The notes under the pieces were generated by a model. It had not been told where the DNA came from. It worked only from the letters and a program-made list of their open reading frames with translations, and did not search any database. DNA of 64,000 bases, taken from assembly GCA_012295275.1 (NCBI GenBank), contig CM022666.1, forward strand, positions 6,572,001 to 6,636,000, given 5' to 3'. The translations under genes were made by a program, and so were the position numbers. How positions within the stretch are numbered: the first letter of the stretch is position 1; each line of letters begins with the position of its first letter. Source of the stretch: Chrysomallon squamiferum. Taxonomy: Eukaryota > Animalia > Mollusca. Positions 4,101 to 15,804 of the stretch are shown in pieces.

Positions 4101-6183
4101 TGAAATGTATGAAAATATGGAGACTGTGTATTAATAATTACATTGAAATGTATGAAAATATGGAGACTGTGTATTAATAATTATGTTAAGAAGTTAAAAA
4201 GTACGATAATATTCTAAATAAGTTCAAATGTACAGTAATGTGAAAATCATATAATTATGTTAAAATGTATGACAATGTGGGGAGAGTGTAATTAGATTAA
4301 AATATCTGACAATGTGCATTTAGAAAACAGACATTTTTTTTTTTTAGATAAAGGAACAAGTTATTATAGAATATATGGCACACATACAAATAACTTGAGA
4401 AATTTGTTGTAAAAAAGAACAAAGTTAAACCTAGTCGAACCATAATGAAATTAAAAAAAAAAATAATATTATAAAATAAAATAAATAAATAATAAAATGA
4501 AATAAAATAAAATATAAAATAAAATATAAAATAAAACTTACCTTATTATCTGTAAGAAGATCTAACAGAAGAGGGTCTTGGTCAAGAAACGTTCTCTGAA
4601 TTGAATTCCTGACATTCTCCATATTGAAAAACGGCAAATCCTGAAAATAAAAATAATTTTATCTAGACTGTCGTTATAATATAACTGCAAGTGTTCTGTC
4701 ACAATACAACCAATGTAAATGACTACATTGATACACTATTAATTATTTTTCTACATAATTTTCGTGGGATCCCAAAAACTAATTTTTTTTCGAAACTGAT
4801 GAACCCTCAATCCATGTAAACTGATTCATTTATTTGTTAATACATGTACATTAATATAATCCACAGTTTTAGTTTCTAAATATTTTTATGCAGAACTCTC
4901 TTTAGCTAGCTAAGGAATGTGGAACTTTAATTAGGAATTGTCCATACATGACTGAAACAAGATTCCTCAAGGGAGTCTGGCATTAAGGAGGTTCCCTTCT
5001 CTCCTCCCCAGGTAATGCTGAAACTTCTTTATCTGACTTCTCAGTCAAGTAATGTATCTTGGAGAACACAATTAAAGGGTGAGTGTTGGAACATACGTTA
5101 ACAGAGGTGTGACAGTGGAAATTAAAACTTACATCCATCATAGGAAATTTAGCTTTATTTTTGAGATCCAAGGGTTTGTCTCCAAGACTTTCGTGTAATT
5201 CTACGGTTAACATCACATTTGCTTTTGGTCTCTTGAACACTGTTTTATGAACCATGCCTTGCCAATCTAGATCCTGAAAAAATTAAAACAAATAAAGATA
5301 ATTCTGAAACTGAAGACTTTATTTTATGAAATGACAGGCAGAAAAGGAAATATTTTAAATTTTGTAAATTATTAAAAATAATTGATACATTATAAACCTG
5401 CATAACAAATATGTCTATAATGACTTGTGTTATGAAATTATTTCAATCACTGAAGCATATAAACAGAACTTTTATTTTCAGTTCTACAAAATGTTGACAA
5501 ATTTTTGTGAAACACCTGTAACAAACATGCACATGCACAAAAACAAAGAACATGTTAACAATCCATCATTCTGAAATTTCAAATCAGTTTTTCTCATTTT
5601 ACAAAACATGATTAATTTTGTATACTGTTTGGTCATTTCATGTGGAACCATCCATCAGAATTACACTGCAGTCTTCTACTGCAATAGCTGTTTATATACA
5701 GATGTTTACTGGAGACCATGTTTTGTGGATAATGTCCAATTAAACCATTTGCTAAAACTTTTCTACCAAAATTAATACATAAATTAAATTTCATTTACAG
5801 TCTAATGTGCAGGTCTTAAGCTTACAGTGCAGAACTCAGCTTTGTTTAATTATAAAAAAACAAAATTTCACCTTCTGAGAGCCAACACCCAGTGTGTTAG
5901 CAACCAGACCTGGCAACTGACTCGTCTGTAACCGTGACGACTGCTGCTGGAATGTCACGTATTGCGGAGCATGCATAACTACCAGTTGCTGTACTGCAGA
6001 TCCAACTGACAGAATACCTGAGAAATAAAATAAAATAAAATAAAATAAAATAAAATAAAATAAAATAAAATAAAATAAAATAAAATAAAATAAAATTTCA
6101 ATAAATAAATAATTATAAATAAGTATAGAATAATAATAAATAAGTAAATAAATAAATAAATATCAACAACAGCAATAATAATC

Positions 6184-6218
<35 letters not shown>

Positions 6219-7309
6219 TATAATAATAAAAAAAATAATAATAATGAATACGTATTAATGGTTAAAGTATAATATATTTTCCTTTTAGCGAATCTCCTGG
6301 TGTTTATAAAATCAGAGTGAGGTTTCTGCTCTGCTCAGTATGACACTACACTTTTGAATGCATCTGTTGAAAAATATTCTGTTAAATATTTTATTCTTCA
6401 TAGTATATTTAGTTAAACTTAAATAGAAGTATATTACATATAAATCTGGATTATTATTCTGCTATTTATCTTTATGAAAGATAAAATAGATGTATATATT
6501 TTCAAACAAAATGAATAATAAATACATTTAATAAAAACAAAAAGACACTGCATATAATATATAATTTTTAAACAATATAACAGAACAATATTAAAAAAGA
6601 TGATGATGATGAACAGGAATAATTTATTCAGGTTTATATGTTCAACATAAGTGTGATTTAAAAATAAATTACAGTATTGTTTGGCATTGAAAAATACACT
6701 GATGCATTATTGTACATTCCAGTTAATATCAATTTCAACAGTTTTCAAACATACATTGTCTTACTCTTACAACATGTAATAAATAACAATAAAACTAGAA
6801 GACACTTTGCAAAAAGAAAAGAAGAAAAATAAATCTGAATATATGATTAACAAATATGATATGAATTTATCGAAAATGATGAACTTCAATGTTTGAAATT
6901 AAATACATTAAATACTAATTTTAATTTTATACAGTATGACTATCATGACACTACGTATAATATGCATTTTATTTTAAAATTACATAACTGATATTGTGTT
7001 GCTTTAAACAAATAATACTGGTTGGAAAATTAAATATTTTATTTTTGTTTGATATTTGCTAATGACTGATAAATGCATGCTTATGAAACTAAACGATCAG
7101 ACCTGATTATAATTTTTACACTCATGCAACACCGACATATTAAAATTCTTTTAAAGAGAGGCATTATTTAGTACGCGAATTTATTCTGTTAAATAATAAC
7201 ATCAACAGGAACTCACAAAAGTTCATACCACTTAACAATCCATACCTGATATTAATAAAACAGAAAACATCCTATACAAGGAAATCTTAACAGACCGGAC
7301 AGGCACCAT
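747..7309 (-). CDS. ATP6AP2: V-ATPase accessory protein 2 / (pro)renin receptor, complete 8-exon gene, about 383 aa
   Basis: Coding exons 7309-7246, 6017-5872, 5273-5133, 4640-4542, 3530-3342, 2352-2203, 1694-1524 and 938-747. All have GT..YAG borders and consistent phases (1,0,0,0,0,0,0). The protein has a signal peptide, DLDWQG..FKRPKANV (human DLSWPG..FHRPRATV), a furin site RKVR, and a TM segment plus tail NLAENY..VFNIVLWLMI..WYMDPGRESIIYRMTSPRLKKD matching the ATP6AP2 C-terminus. Confidence 0.97.
1524..1694 (-). CDS. ATP6AP2: ATP6AP2 exon 7 (furin site RKVR, Ser/Thr linker)
   Basis: cag acceptor 1697-1695, gtaagt donor; MRDDLKSLYKDNVVFEV..SRKVRSLM..; 171 nt. Confidence 0.95.
2203..2352 (-). 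CDS. ATP6AP2: ATP6AP2 exon 6
   Basis: tag acceptor, gtaaga donor; ..KSPDLLSFTMTGF..DAKQMLTDFIHS; 150 nt. Confidence 0.95.
3342..3530 (-). CDS. ATP6AP2: ATP6AP2 exon 5
   Basis: cag acceptor, gtaagt donor; ..SLRQVKDRLF..GSLN..DMTFMGEMQMISDVIQT; 189 nt. Confidence 0.95.
3860..4310. repeat. 43-bp intronic minisatellite in ATP6AP2 intron 4
   Basis: Unit ATTGAAATGTATGAAAATATGGAGACTGTGTRTTAATAATTAY starts at 3948, 3991, 4056, 4099 and 4142, with degenerate copies on both flanks. Confidence 0.9.
4542..4640 (-). CDS. ATP6AP2: ATP6AP2 exon 4
   Basis: cag acceptor, gtaagt donor; DLPFFNMENVRNSIQRTFLDQDPLLLDLLTDNK; 99 nt. Confidence 0.94.
5133..5273 (-). CDS. ATP6AP2: ATP6AP2 exon 3
   Basis: cag acceptor, gtaagt donor; DLDWQGMVHKTVFKRPKANVMLTV..; 141 nt. 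Confidence 0.95.
5872..6017 (-). CDS. ATP6AP2: ATP6AP2 exon 2
   Basis: cag acceptor 6020-6018, AAG|gtgaaa donor; GILSVGSAVQQLVVMHAPQYVTF..LPGLVANTLGVGSQK; 146 nt, phase 1 in and phase 0 out. Confidence 0.93.
7246..7309 (-). CDS. ATP6AP2: ATP6AP2 exon 1 (start codon, signal peptide)
   Basis: aagATGg context; MVPVRSVKISLYRMFSVLLIS+G; CAG|gtatgg donor whose phase 1 matches exon 2. Confidence 0.85.
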
Positions 7310-8039: not shown

Positions 8040-8096
8040 GTCACGTGATTTATTTTTACAATATAAATAAGTGAAAGTTACCCAGTGTAGTCACTT
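8040..8096 (+). promoter_or_regulatory. Core promoter of the secreted peptide gene: E-box, TATA box, Inr-like element
   Basis: GTCACGTGA 8040-8048, TATAAATA 8062-8069, TCACTT 8091-8096 about 30 nt after the TATA box. Confidence 0.65.
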
Positions 8097-8155
8097 CATC
8101 GTCTTCCAGTGTTTTGTGCCAGTCATTCGAAGTGTTGAGAAATTGTTTTGTTCCA
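8092..8155 (+). other. Non-coding first exon (5' UTR) of the secreted peptide gene
   Basis: gtaagc donor at 8156; intron ends at ttttccag 8306; caaaATG follows at 8311. The 5' end is approximate. Confidence 0.65.
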
Positions 8156-8310
8156 GTAAGCATTAATATATATTTTATTTATTTATATTTTTTGTTTGTT
8201 TTTTGTTTGATAGTTCGATTATTCTCCTCTTCTTTCACATTAATTCTTTTACATTTAATTTTAATATAAAGAATCAAAATAACTGAATAAATTTATATTT
8301 TTCCAGCAAA

Positions 8311-8992
8311 ATGAGGACCACGTATTTCTTGGTACTCCTGCTGGCCTTGACCTTGGTTCCTGAAAACGTGGACGGCTGGTTCTTCCGATCCGTGCGAAGA
8401 ATTCGCGTCAATCCGTATCACACACTTGGTTGTATGGCGGCCTGTAAGTGGGCCAGGAGCTGGGCATGCAAAGGTGTGCAAGAGGAAGAGAGGACTGGAC
8501 GTACGTGTTCCTCCAGCAGAGGTATTTGCTAGATATTTAGCTTTTCTCCACAATTTAAATTTTAAAAAATGTAATCGGCACGCGGTAAGATTGTTCATGA
8601 ACAACCATATATATTGAAAATGTATTTTGAATTTTGAGGATGCTGACGATGTCGCTGCTTTGAAAGAATTGGATTTCGATGGAGATGGTTTTGCTGATCT
8701 GAATGAAATCGCTGCAGCATCGGGTCTGAAGCCCACAAACGTGGTTCAGATGAAAAAATTCCACGCTGCAGATGGCGATGGTGACGGCAAACTGAACGCA
8801 GCTGAATTGGACGATTTCAACTTCGTCGATAAAGATGAACGTAAGTAGAAAAAGAGAAACGCGTTTAGATCTTAAGTTTACTCGAATAAATGAGAAATTG
8901 AAACTGATAACGATTTTTTTTTTCTTGCAGTTGTTGAAGCCGTCGATGAAGATGGAGCTGATGACGCTGGAGACGATGACGTCGTACATTAA
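8311..8992 (+). CDS. Secreted cationic Cys-rich peptide precursor with acidic two-EF-hand C-terminal domain (putative antimicrobial peptide precursor); frameshifted in this sequence, possibly a pseudogene
   Basis: Exons 8311-8521, 8639-8840 and 8931-8992. Signal peptide MRTTYFLVLLLALTLVPENVDG; peptide WFFRSVRRIRVNPYHTLGCMAACKWARSWACK[frameshift]VC; KRKR; EF loops DFDGDGFADLNE and DGDGDGKLNAAE; acidic tail ending DDDVVH*. Donors gtattt 8522 and gtaagt 8841; acceptors gag 8638 and cag 8930. About 157-158 aa once repaired. Confidence 0.8.
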
Positions 8993-9035: not shown

Positions 9036-9041
9036 AATAAA
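9036..9041 (+). terminator. Polyadenylation signal of the peptide gene
   Basis: AATAAA about 45 nt after the TAA stop, followed by T-rich sequence. Confidence 0.7.
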
Positions 9042-9901: not shown

Positions 9902-10848
9902 GAAGAACGTATTTAATAAATAACATATATTTGCATTATACAAAGATTGATTTAGCATAATAAATTTAATCTCATTTCTATCATAATCCAGTTTCAACTC
10001 CTTTTACTTATTTTGTTTTATTATGTTTTATTTTTACATTGCTGTCAGTTATGTGGTTGTTTCTTAAGGGTTTTATTTTTGAGATAATAGTAGTAGAATA
10101 AGTAATACTGGAGATGGTGGTGGTGGTGGTGGTGGTGGTGGTAGTAGTAGTAGTAGTAGTTGCAGTTGTTCTAGTAGTTGTAGTAATTGTAGTAACTGTT
10201 GTTTTTTAGATCAACTGAAAAATTAAGCATTTGTTATTTACAAACTGCTTGATACTACTTCACTAGAGAAGACAAACGAAATATATGACATTAATGTGGT
10301 CGTCGTCATTATCATCATCATGAACGTCAAAATTATCGTTGTCGTTGTCGTCGTCGTCGTCGTAGCTTTAAACACCTAACTACAGTCAATTATAAAATAA
10401 ATTGGAATAACTTTGTATTATTCACTATAATACAGTGTGTTTGCGCATGTCTCTGTGTACGTGTGTGTGTTAGTGTGTGTGTAAACCATCATTGTTTTAA
10501 TGACATTTGATAACAATAAACACAATTATCGTCTTCTAGGTTTCATTTTATAGATAAACCCATGTAGTTGCCTTTCAGCAAAACATAATTCGTTAAATTT
10601 TAACGATCTGATGAAGATAGATGGGCTTGTTATTTAATCAATATAATGTGATCACAGAAATTTTTCGACTGAATTTTCATTAATTAAACTTCGATATTCC
10701 GAAAGTTTTTATTTGTATTACACAAGGTTGAAAAATGAGATTAAATTTATTAAGCTATCGTAATCCTGTTTCACTGCTTTTAGATCATTTAGTTCAATTT
10801 AAAATTTAATTTTAACTCTTTGTATGTGTATGTGTGTGTATGTATGTG

Positions 10849-11310: not shown

Positions 11311-11446
11311 TATGGAATAAAAATGCTTAAATCGTTATTTCATCGTGTAATTATAAATATTTAATGCAGAAGTATGGAATAAAAATGCTTAAATCGTTAT
11401 TTCATCGTGTAATTATAAATATTTAATGCAGAAGTATGGAATAAAA
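11311..11446. repeat. 62-bp tandem duplication (2.2 copies)
   Basis: Identical units beginning TATGGAATAAAAATGCTTAAATCG at 11311 and 11373, with a partial third at 11435. Confidence 0.92.
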
Positions 11447-11539
11447 TAAGATCTAAATGTAGGTATGTGTATATATAATCTTTTTAAATGCCAGTGTAAC
11501 GTTCACTGTAAATATTTAGTGAATTCTCGTTAAAATGTA

Positions 11540-11586
<47 letters not shown>

Positions 11587-11650
11587 CAGTGAATTATTCT
11601 TATTTATTTGAATTCATTAAATAATTAACTTATTATTATTATTATTTTTA

Positions 11651-11710
<60 letters not shown>

Positions 11711-12501
11711 TTTTTGGCCATTATGTATATTTTTTGTTATGTTAATAACAGAACTTATTTAGTCTTGAAATTTATACATCCCATAATAAAGACGTCGGAT
11801 TTTTTAATCCCGTGTTGGAATGAACTCTATTTTAATTAATTCAGTGCCAAAATATCCGTGTCACATTACAAGTAGTCCAATATACTTCAAGTAGGTCATT
11901 TGTCATCGTGCATGAATAGTTAGTTGTATTACCACAACGCCAACGAATATTTCGAGTAGTTTATTCCATTTGTACATTAATTTATACAGTTCATAATTAA
12001 AGAACAATACAGAAAATAAATACATTATCAGGACATAACACTTCACAAACCACAAAGTAATGAAATAAATACACAATAACAAACGATTTCAGACCGCCAT
12101 GATTTTAGTCTCGATTGACCGAATCTCGTGTTTTTATTATATTTCAGGTTAGGAAAAAAAAAAAAAAAAATAATAATAAAGGCTAAACAAGATTATTTGT
12201 CCTCAGTTCAGAAAAATTGTTTTCAAATATAAAAACATTTTTTATTCGTTTGTTTGATTCTGTTAAAATTATTTAGAAATAAAATAATGTCCAGATTTTA
12301 TTTATTTTAAACAGATAACGTGTTCAGATAAATAGCATCTATCGCATTTTTCGATAAAACATCTTAAACGGACATATCACAGCTTTCCATTTAAATATTG
12401 CGCTAAATGCAGCAGGTATTTAAAGAGTATTGAAATAAAAAATATAAAATAAATAAATAAATAAATGTTTGAATGAGGGAATGAATGAATGAATGAATGA
12501 A

Positions 12502-12566
<65 letters not shown>

Positions 12567-12768
12567 TTAAAAGGGAGGTAATGCCAATTCAGCTTATCTT
12601 AACAATACTGAAGTATTACATCCGCTTGTCCTTAAGAAGTAATAATTAGTTACTAGTTTCGAATATCAAATACCAAAGTATGTATAGTTTTGTAACATAT
12701 ATATATGCTTATTTTTTTCCCCTTTCTTAGATTTGTAATTAATGGTCCTTTTTTTCATTTTAGATATT

Positions 12769-12809
<41 letters not shown>

Positions 12810-13881
12810 TATATATATAGTTATATACTGCACTTAATGAAAATATTATACGAGAAGGAAGATTCTGCTACGTTACCTTACTATGACGTAGATTTTCGTT
12901 TCCCACGTCATATATTAATGACGTTGGTCTTCTGTGTTCTAGCTAGCATTTCACAGAAACATTACGTCACAAACAAATTACACAACGAAATATTAAATAT
13001 ATGATTTATATATACAAATACTAAACAGCTACGGTATTATTCCACATAGTACAGTAAAATACAACAGTATAATAAACAGTCCTGCTACTGACAAACGTTG
13101 AACACTTTTTCTAAAGAAAATATTTATTTTTTGCAGTTCTGATGTCACGGACAAAATATGTTGGTGAGAATCTGTTAACTTCATGTTTTCTTCGCTTTTT
13201 TATTTCATGCTGAATAAAACTAATTGTAGAATGGCCTTCGTACGACTGAAATAATTCATTGGTAAAACTTCCTTTATACTGAGATTACGTCATACAGGTC
13301 ACGAGGTTGCTTTTTCCTTAAAGAAAAATATGTCACATGATTTTTATTGGAGCACGTTTTTTCACTATTTGTCAATCTGTGGGAACATCGTTTGACATTT
13401 AAAATATTAGTTACAGCCATAATTTACATCATTTCCACTCTGAAATATCCGAGATGCATTTCATAAAATAAGTAAAACAAAAAAATCACAAAAGTATCTG
13501 AACACGGAAAACCTGTACAGATCTTGTGGCAAATACGTATCTGCACATGAAAAATCTGTACAGGCCTGGTGGCAAATACATTTAAGATAATGTCCGTGAT
13601 GCACTAAAGATGTCATATGAGAAATATCTGAACAGTAAAATAGCCACAGTATATAACATTGTGCAGATTATCCCTAACACATAAGTAGAGCTCAAAACAT
13701 GAGACATTCGTAATATCAACATTGTAGGATAATTGCAAATCATTACGAGACAGTATGTGAGACAAAATGTGTGTCTTCCATAAAAGGATTCAGATTCGTA
13801 AGATCCGCTAACTTCTAAATCGTACCATAACTGAAACGCCGTTTATACCTGAAATTGTTTTCTTAACATAACCCTGATTTG

Positions 13882-14837
13882 TCAGACGAAGAAACTTTGC
13901 TGTTGGACTTTATTCTTAATCGGCTTTGGAGGAACTGGCGGAGGTATTTTCAGAATGGTCGAAGAAACCACTGGAGACATTTTGTCAAAGTTTGATGTCG
14001 TCTGATTGCCGACGACTTCAAGCAACACTGAATTTCCATCGTGGTCCGTCGTCTGCCATCTGTTGTCAGATATGGGTTTACAGATGTTTGGAAACAGTGG
14101 AACAAGATGGCCGACGTCTGAGACCTTAAACTGCAGCGTAACAGAGTCGAGGAGTTTCGGTTTGTTCCCGTTGGGAAGTCTTTTTAAAGCAAATTGAACG
14201 TCATAGTGGATTTGTGAATGCACAACGAACATGCAGAAATCTGGTCTCTTCAGATCCGCGTCGATACCCAGAATTAACTTATAGAATTCCAAAGTGTCGT
14301 CCCAGTTCTCCGCACTGGCGTATACCACAATTCTTATATGTTCCTTCCCATAATGCACTTGTCTAACCGCCCACAGCGGAAGATCCTCCGACGTGTAATA
14401 AAACTCCTGAGAATTGTACGGGTACGGATTGAGTGTGCCGTTTTTCAAATGTTCCGAATGGTGAAACTTCCACGGACATTTCTCGAAATGATGCCTGGCC
14501 GCCTGGATTCGCTCGCAGCCGAGCATCCCTTCTTCGTGGAGGAAAACAATCACAGCAATGCTGGGAATAACGTCCGGGTTGGTGATTCCACTTCGGTCGC
14601 GCTCGCATCCCGACTCTCTCTCGATGATCTTGAAGAGATGCATGTCGGGATCGATCCAGTTGATGACGGGTTGGAACATGTCGTACAGCGGCAGGATCTC
14701 GTGGGTGTCTGCGAAGAACTGGATGGAGATTCTGTTGGGGTCGTTCTGCGACAAGGAGTCGGTGTCTGATCCTGACAGGCTGGCGTTCTCGCTCTCCGTC
14801 TCAGATCTCGTGGAACTCATGGAGGAGATGCTGCTGC
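13882..14837 (-). CDS. FAM124: FAM124-family protein, main coding exon
   Basis: The 312-aa ORF has family motifs PSIAVIVFLHEE, PWKFHHSE, PLWAVRQVHYGKEHIR, EFYKLILG and WQTTDHDGN, and ends FFV. The ttttcatttacag acceptor at 14840-14838 extends the frame upstream of the ORF Met (xSSISSM). Confidence 0.92.
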
Positions 14838-15804
14838 CTGTAAATGAAAAACAAAATACGTGAATAAATAATGAAACTATTTTTTTTTTTTTTTTTAAAG
14901 AGAATTTTCCTAATCAAGCAAGTATGCTTGCGCTGATTTCAGTTAGAAAAGGACTTTCTTCTTATTCTTCTTTTTTTTTAAAATTCTAATTTTATCATGA
15001 AAATTAAAGTAGCAAGAGGATTATTTATCCGACAAGGTTTGGAAAGGAGATGATCAGGATTTCTGAATTCTCTGGCATTCCGAACCGAAGTTTTTAATGC
15101 ACACTTAAAATATAAAACAAATAGTAAAGAAAAAACTGTAATTAACATATACAAACTAATACACTTGTAAAACAGTTCTGTGGAAGCCTTGGTAAACAGT
15201 CTGGTACCTGAACAGTCATGAACATATATAATATTTCATTTGCTTGTTAATTCATAGTCAGCTAACAGAATATGAAAGATATGAATATGAAACAATATCA
15301 AAGATGTGTAGATTATGAGTTATTTTATATATTTATTATTGTCTTTTTATACAGTTTATACACTGATATAAATAATAAAGAGATTAAAATATCCTAATCA
15401 GTTTACTCTGAAGATAATAATAACTAATAAATAATAATAATAATAATAATAAATAATAATAATAATAATAATAAATAAATAATAATAATAATAAAATAAA
15501 TAAAATAAACAAATAAATAAATGAAAATAAAAATAACAGTAAACTAAAGAAATGGTGTTTATTTATGTATTCAAAACATTTTAGCATTTTAAGGGAAAAT
15601 TATTTCAAAATGACTAATAGATTCCATTCAATCAACAAACAAAAAATATAAAAGAAAAAATTATACAAGCTTTCATCTTCTAATCACAGATGTAAAACAT
15701 ATGTGACAAATTAAACCAAATATCTGTCTGTATTCTCTCCACTTAAAACAATTAAACAATCTACACTGTATTTAGACACGTAGTTTCAGAAAACAATATC
15801 TTAC

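Follow-up and report, generated by a model that had tools for sequence, protein, structure and literature searches.

A conserved cationic four-cysteine peptide encoded ahead of an acidic EF-hand region in Chrysomallon squamiferum, a candidate host-defence family

Does the reading frame that opens with an ATG at position 8311 belong to a working gene, and what could be the role of the small basic peptide that it places in front of an acidic EF-hand region? The frame lies in a 64-kb stretch of Chrysomallon squamiferum DNA, analysed here over its whole length and referred to as the window. A sequence-only reading had proposed a new host-defence family, an antimicrobial or toxin-like helical hairpin held inactive by an anionic pro-domain. 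We compared the locus with contigs of seven public runs (of 13 listed), which cannot reveal expression level or tissue, and with sequence and structure databases and the literature.

Gene structure and reading frame

The gene is compact and has four exons on the forward strand. A putative TATA-like box, identified by pattern match, is located at 8062 to 8068, upstream of the first exon. The 5' untranslated exon (8102 to 8155, the start being a lower bound) is joined to position 8307 by one RNA contig of run X9, across an intron with GT/AG ends (intron 1, 8156 to 8306). Exon 2 contains the codons for a predicted signal peptide (8311 to 8376), the predicted mature peptide (8377 to 8479, with one extra base near 8470 in the window), the KRKR site (8480 to 8491) and, based on the sequence and the RNA contigs, the start of the acidic pro-region (8492 to 8521). 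Intron 2 (8522 to 8638) is in phase 0 and runs from GT to a GAG acceptor. Exon 3 (8639 to 8840) encodes the EF-hand pair, with loop 1 at 8672 to 8707 and loop 2 at 8771 to 8806, and is separated by intron 3 (8841 to 8930, GT..AG) from the coding part of exon 4 (8931 to 8992), which encodes an Asp/Glu-rich tail and ends with the stop codon. An AATAAA motif at 9036 to 9041 is the likely polyadenylation signal, and an RNA contig extends to 9016.

The joints 8521/8639 and 8840/8931, at GT..AG ends, were seen in RNA contigs of both RNA runs and were absent from the contigs of the examined DNA runs. The gene is spliced and transcribed. The GAG acceptor of intron 2 (8636 to 8638) is of an uncommon type and is confirmed by the RNA joints. 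No second copy of the gene was found elsewhere in the 64-kb window, nor did either of two patterns tried reveal a kappaB-like site in the 1.1 kb upstream. The gene is flanked by microsatellites and a 62-base tandem repeat (6023 to 6250, 10115 to 10194, 11311 to 11478, and 11542 to 12827), and an open frame of 343 amino acids with a FAM124 domain (13882 to 14913, reverse strand; Pfam E value, 3.8e-74) appears to be an exon of an ordinary neighbouring gene.

In the window sequence, the frame of the ATG at 8311 shifts near 8470, and the KRKR codons fall in another frame. Base 8470 is missing in contigs of all seven runs, with depths without the base of 5371/5500 in X2, 424/424 in X9, 408/713 in X8, 205/325 in X1, 1605/2601 in X3, 153/249 in X4, and 4.2/4.2 in X10; the remaining depth at 8470 is partly that of contigs clipped at 8471 to 8473. 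The extra base sits in a run of three A, and an X2 contig that enters the window copy's own intron carries one gap and no further mismatch, 8470 being the sole gap listed there. Since all seven runs have contigs lacking the base, and since the contig reaching this copy's own intron otherwise matches, the shift in frame most likely reflects an error of assembly. That the window copy is instead a frameshifted pseudogene among otherwise intact family copies would account for the out-of-frame sequence and for the Asn codon at 8410 to 8412, a minority form missing from five of the seven runs. However, the X2 contig, the position of the extra base within a short A run, and spliced RNA contigs that are 98% to 100% like exon 3 of the window copy all speak against this reading, which we consider highly improbable.

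Codon 8410 to 8412 is also variable in its own right: it specifies Asn in the window and Ser in most of the depth of all seven runs, as in several copies of Gigantopelta aegis, and the Asn form was found only in X1 and X3. Run X10 (organism B) yielded one contig, of depth 4.2, which matches 8342 to 8496 with only two differences, both common to organism A; it could represent a second species, a mislabelled sample or carry-over.

The precursor and its relatives

The leader encoded at 8311 to 8376 is hydrophobic and ends in V-D-G, with the small residues at positions -1 and -3 kept in the homologues, so that the 22-residue signal peptide proposed earlier, predicted by eye, is upheld. The predicted mature peptide has 34 residues, including 7 Arg/Lys, 3 Trp, 4 Cys and no Asp or Glu, exactly the composition first described; of the earlier length of 34 to 35 residues with an optional Gly, the shorter form stands and the Gly is removed by the reads and by every homologue. 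The pI is 10.3, the net charge is +7, and the helical hydrophobic moment over the first residues is 0.60 to 0.62 (calculated for protein P0005). The peptide is thus short, net positive, amphipathic and predicted to be secreted, as expected of cationic host-defence peptides.

The cysteines are spaced Cx3C-x7-Cx2C in all 24 stored proteins that contain the peptide, and a second Cx3C, as in the motif Cx3C-x7-Cx3C after which the family was initially named, occurs in none of them. These 24 proteins represent nine distinct peptides and are not independent, because cluster members and isoforms are among them. The KRKR site is present in 23 of the 24 and is reduced to KR in the remaining one; the homologue P0017 has the KR site and a charge of only +5. 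The expectation that homologues would share the cysteine and KRKR layout is therefore borne out. An amidation Gly preceding the basic site is absent from every homologue. The strict furin motif is R-X-K/R-R, with Arg at P4. KRKR has Lys at P4 and fails this motif, whereas it agrees with the general dibasic rule for convertases; the previous assignment to furin or a proprotein convertase holds in the latter, broader sense. Internal R-X-X-R motifs at residues 4 to 10 could offer a route to a shorter mature form. A search of the six frames of the 64-kb window for a signal followed by an acid-free stretch with the Cx3C-x7-C pattern returned a single occurrence, which, together with homologues at E values down to 3e-27, shows that the layout did not arise by chance.

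The region after KRKR comprises 97 residues, 29 of them Asp/Glu and 7 Arg/Lys (net charge, -22), and contains two canonical 12-residue EF-hand loops, 33 residues apart (Pfam EF-hand_1 E value, 8.7e-7), confirming the Asp/Glu-rich region of about 97 residues with two such loops that was seen at the outset. In both loops, positions 1, 3 and 5 are Asp or Asn, position 6 is Gly and position 12 is Glu; among 11 sequences, Gly6 was found in 20 of 22 loops, and Asp1 and Glu12 were found in all 22. The pair is related in sequence to calmodulin-type lobes (PDB matches at E values of 6e-10 to 3e-6). Near 8780, similarity to the window resumes in DNA contigs of other copies after uncharacterised sequence, and the corresponding Gly of loop 2 is where several single-exon ENA proteins cease to be similar; other copies may have an intron near 8780 that the window copy lacks.

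With the first 55 residues as the query, nine of the 35 candidates were homologues, namely, seven G. aegis RefSeq models and two ENA proteins (best E value, 3e-27). Two profile searches, in which 45 of 5643 and 36 of 3520 candidates matched, extended the family by more proteins from G. aegis and ENA and otherwise reached only generic EF-hand proteins. Searched exhaustively with HMMER, these 55 residues had 11 matches, five of which were family members. Five others (P0049 to P0054 less P0017) were set aside as long, multi-stretch proteins, P0051 being a repeat. The ENA proteins resemble single exons read into introns and the point at which they start or end coincides with an exon boundary of the window gene. 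Named homologues were found only in G. aegis, a chemosymbiotic vent snail with intracellular symbionts, and no other named mollusc was among the matches of these searches, which were word-seeded or used the peptide alone, so that remote relatives of the EF-hand part may escape them. None of the 139 candidate metagenome contigs and none of 51 viral contigs carried a related locus. Two of 134 genome contigs were considered and rejected as chance matches: one (L001) matches over 11 residues only, in a frame with stop codons, and the other (L002) is a short match at the end of the signal.

Pfam gave nothing significant for the peptide, PDB sequences gave no match to the peptide profile at an E value of <=10, and the ESM Atlas had no usable match for residues 1 to 64. 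Whole-protein matches in the ESM Atlas were all below 0.9 and were mostly to EF-hand clusters; 4 of the 10 among those listed are molluscan and serve as leads only. A description of the family was not found in the literature searched by motif, locus identifier and topic, a body that mostly excludes subscription journals. Blank database searches do not prove novelty, and the family is apparently undescribed and lineage-restricted, in keeping with the first impression that it is not a named one.

When the window protein was compared with eight full-length G. aegis copies, the identity was 0.94 for the peptide (first 31 residues), 0.75 for the signal, 0.56 for the EF-hand pair and 0.39 for the linker. 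In the EF-hand pair, the window and G. aegis copies are 52% to 60% identical, and the G. aegis copies are 62% to 92% identical to one another, as is likely if the window derives from a distinct but related snail. Residues W1, F2, F3, R7, R8, I9, R10, H15, C19, C23, W25, W29, C31 and C34 are invariant in eight distinct peptides. A divergent paralogue, represented by X3 and X4 contigs, shows 21 listed differences across 28 codons of the peptide; nine codons have synonymous changes only and six have amino acid changes, and all Cys, Trp and basic positions are kept. The dN/dS ratio against this paralogue is ~0.14 (Fisher P value, 2e-4; one pair, 28 codons, the last six being unscored). In these comparisons the peptide is thus strongly conserved, under purifying selection, and the most conserved part of the precursor.

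The sequence-only reading had looked for a hypervariable peptide on a conserved pro-domain. In the main subfamily the relation is reversed (0.94 versus 0.56), and the idea survives only in three G. aegis paralogues, where a signal of the same type and a basic site accompany a different short cargo. The cargo is a short, Trp-rich linear peptide in P0013 and in P0033/P0067 and a three-Cys peptide in P0019/P0065; the EF-hand pair is kept in P0013 and P0065. Because these three paralogues carry other cargo while the main peptide is conserved, the scaffold is modular and its main cargo nearly constant. A tree of the EF-hand region had support for two of eight branches and does not give the order of the cargo swaps. 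In the G. aegis models P0016/P0068 and P0004 the peptide is cut short or the tail is shifted; these may be pseudogenes or annotation errors.

The family is apparently present in multiple copies. In G. aegis, about nine gene models include the peptide, spread over at least four contigs. In run X2, a single 128-base contig covering 8360 to 8488 has a depth of 2379, versus 89 to 229 for copy-specific pieces, and the signal codons are covered by 10 to 11 different contigs and parts of the EF-hand exon by 8 to 10; X3 and X4 show the same depth pattern with lower ratios. Depth is not a copy number, and contigs drop rare variants, so these values do no more than suggest that C. squamiferum has some 10 or more nearly identical copies coding for the peptide. 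Many copies appear to be identical over the peptide, even at synonymous sites, while their flanks differ. Gene conversion restricted to the cargo codons is possible and would produce such a pattern of peptide identity with divergent flanks.

An AlphaFold2 prediction based on eight aligned peptides placed helices at residues 2 to 10, 13 to 26 and 30 to 33, with a mean pLDDT of 69.5 and values of ~80 over residues 21 to 30, the N-terminal helix being amphipathic (moment, 0.6). This model, of moderate confidence, is compatible with a short helix-turn-helix in which C19-C34 and C23-C31 would form nested disulfides, and it is in line with the helical hairpin suggested before. The peptide model had no Foldseek matches in the PDB, and its best VIA match (Z score, 3.2) was to generic helices. 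Prediction of a complex between the peptide and the EF-hand domain (residues 23 to 56 with 62 to 150 of P0005) scored 0.02, which counts neither for nor against binding, and a model of the full precursor (pLDDT, 51.8) was left unused.

Candidate functions

We lean, by somewhat more than even chances, towards a new lineage-restricted host-defence peptide family in which a candidate antimicrobial cargo is carried by an EF-hand scaffold. The precursor would enter the secretory pathway and lose its signal after Gly22, and a convertase would cut at KRKR, with the basic residues subsequently trimmed. The freed 34-residue peptide, with its charge of +7, has a predicted fold of helix-turn-helix type, tied by disulfides, and its amphipathic N-terminal helix may bind anionic microbial surfaces, and the anionic tail (-22) could bind Ca2+, neutralise the peptide and aid its packing in secretory granules. 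Many gene copies with almost the same cargo would be fitting for a product required in large amounts. In favour of this reading are the charge and amphipathicity of the peptide, its conservation, a layout in common with the precursor of a proven mollusc antimicrobial (mytimycin), the apparent number of copies and the modular cargo. No sign of a venom or toxin role was found. Antimicrobial and toxin peptides usually evolve fast. The near-invariance of the mature peptide, judged from the aligned copies, is the reverse of this behaviour and so counts against a defence role; it could as readily be that of a receptor ligand. Further points against defence are that P0065 has an alternative cargo that is not cationic, that no kappaB-like site was seen upstream with the two patterns, that P0017 has a lower charge and only KR, that the internal R-X-X-R motifs could shorten the mature form, and that EF-hands are on record in secreted mollusc shell proteins and in a gastropod neuropeptide precursor. 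A more specific version of the host-defence reading would be a vent-snail-specific family, amplified for dosage and gene-converted over the peptide codons, that polices intracellular symbionts, with a reusable EF-hand carrier keeping its cargoes inactive until the convertase cut. Legume NCR peptides and the peptides of aphid bacteriocytes are symbiont-controlling analogues. The RNA runs do not favour symbiont control, as they are labelled metatranscriptomic with no tissue given, and we regard this version as unlikely.

The conservation that sits poorly with defence would be expected of a neuropeptide, hormone or pheromone that is cut from an EF-hand prohormone and recognised by a conserved host receptor. 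The peptide is much more conserved than its carrier and under purifying selection, the cleavage site is of the convertase type, and a terrestrial-snail gene for presumed neuropeptides together with an EF-hand is on record by its title. However, all homologues lack the amidation Gly, the charge is +7, and a ligand acting at low dose would seldom need what are apparently many near-identical copies. Neuropeptide families are usually phylum-wide, and the failure of both word-seeded and exhaustive searches to find relatives in other molluscs therefore counts against a signalling role, which we hold to be improbable. The invariance of H15, C19, C23, C31 and C34 could also be read as that of metal ligands rather than disulfide partners, in a secreted metal- or sulfide-binding module for vent fluids. 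CxxC is a common metal-binding motif, and a vent snail is the sole source of named homologues, a restriction that may reflect mere ancestry. Yet cysteines of the secretory pathway are usually oxidised, and the invariant WFF and RRIR would be left unexplained; such a module seems very unlikely. A precursor of shell, periostracum, sclerite or mucus matrix, in which Ca2+ or further cations would be handled by the acidic EF-hand part and an organic layer would take up the Cys/Trp/Arg peptide by cross-linking, has in its favour that molluscan hard parts contain EF-hand proteins, such as Lottia EFCB1/2, abalone SMP5, and, in the parts of those reports available, the shell and sclerite proteomes of peltospirids, where EF-hand domains are documented. 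However, no protein of Lottia, abalone or a bivalve was retrieved at E values of <=1e-4 or <=0.05, and it is the EF-hand part that drifts (0.56), not the peptide (0.94). Abalone SMP5, as far as its published account was available, has a 16-residue signal and EF-hands from residue 36, with no Cys-peptide described (PMC10741955). The matrix reading is rather unlikely.

If the host-defence reading holds, the family would provide one short, synthesisable candidate effector hidden behind "EF-hand/calmodulin-like" labels. Few gastropod antimicrobial peptides are listed in the accessible sections of a recent review, and the main text of the G. aegis genome paper, in the portion available, discusses symbiont control by way of lectins, pattern-recognition receptors and lysosomes and does not contain the words "antimicrobial" or "EF-hand." Since the animal lives in seawater, its cationic peptide might also tolerate salt. 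The nearly invariant cargo and the natural cargo swaps make the role of the pro-domain directly testable.

Comparison with known systems

The literature used for comparison, in excerpts, also included PMC7895826, PMC5549309, PMC11871041, PMC8398477, PMC12466427 and bioRxiv 2020.09.23.308304. The gastropod precursor of Bogdanov 1998, reportedly neuronal and combining neuropeptides with an EF-hand region, is similar as far as its title goes. Lottia EFCB1 and EFCB2 (PMC4094399) and abalone SMP5 are likewise EF-hand proteins of small size and acidic character that have a signal, and in Lottia several genes encode them, but the parts of those reports available describe no conserved cationic Cys-peptide or KRKR, and none of these proteins was retrieved as a homologue.

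Among four-cysteine peptides, plant alpha-hairpinins were named in the initial reading on account of their spacing. According to the available text of PMC11591084, they have the motif CX3C-X4-20-CX3C and derive from vicilin-like or multi-module precursors that have no EF-hand. Like them, the present peptide is short, has four Cys, would be released from a larger precursor and is modelled, with moderate confidence, as a helix-loop-helix. It differs in that its second pair is CX2C, which invalidates the spacing argument, and in that its precursor combines a single peptide with an EF-hand pair. With CX3C-X7-CX2C in 24 of 24 homologues, identity with the alpha-hairpinins was rejected. The ascidian turgencins are similarly cationic, Met-containing peptides of a marine invertebrate, with nested disulfides and a tendency towards helix-loop-helix, whereas they have six Cys and an amidated C-terminus and show no sequence match; their precursor is not characterised in the portion of PMC7024374 available.

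The closest parallel in layout, and one that the sequence-only reading had already drawn, is provided by the mytimycins, antifungal peptides of Mytilus that form a multi-gene family. As described in the accessible part of PMC8004829, the mytimycin precursor consists of a 23-residue signal, a 54-residue peptide with 12 Cys, a dibasic site, and an anionic EF-hand extension of unknown role. The corresponding four parts, among them a Cys-rich peptide, follow one another in the same order here, again in a multi-gene family of a mollusc, and the parallel is sustained by that description. Mytimycin was not retrieved in any homologue search, and the likeness rests on the described layout. The peptides differ, with 54 residues and 12 Cys there versus 34 residues and 4 Cys here, as does the part that is conserved: the EF-hand is called highly conserved in that report, while here it is the peptide. 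The C. squamiferum precursor resembles mytimycin in layout and is no mytimycin, and with it molluscs would have a second example of a peptide carried by an EF-hand pro-domain.
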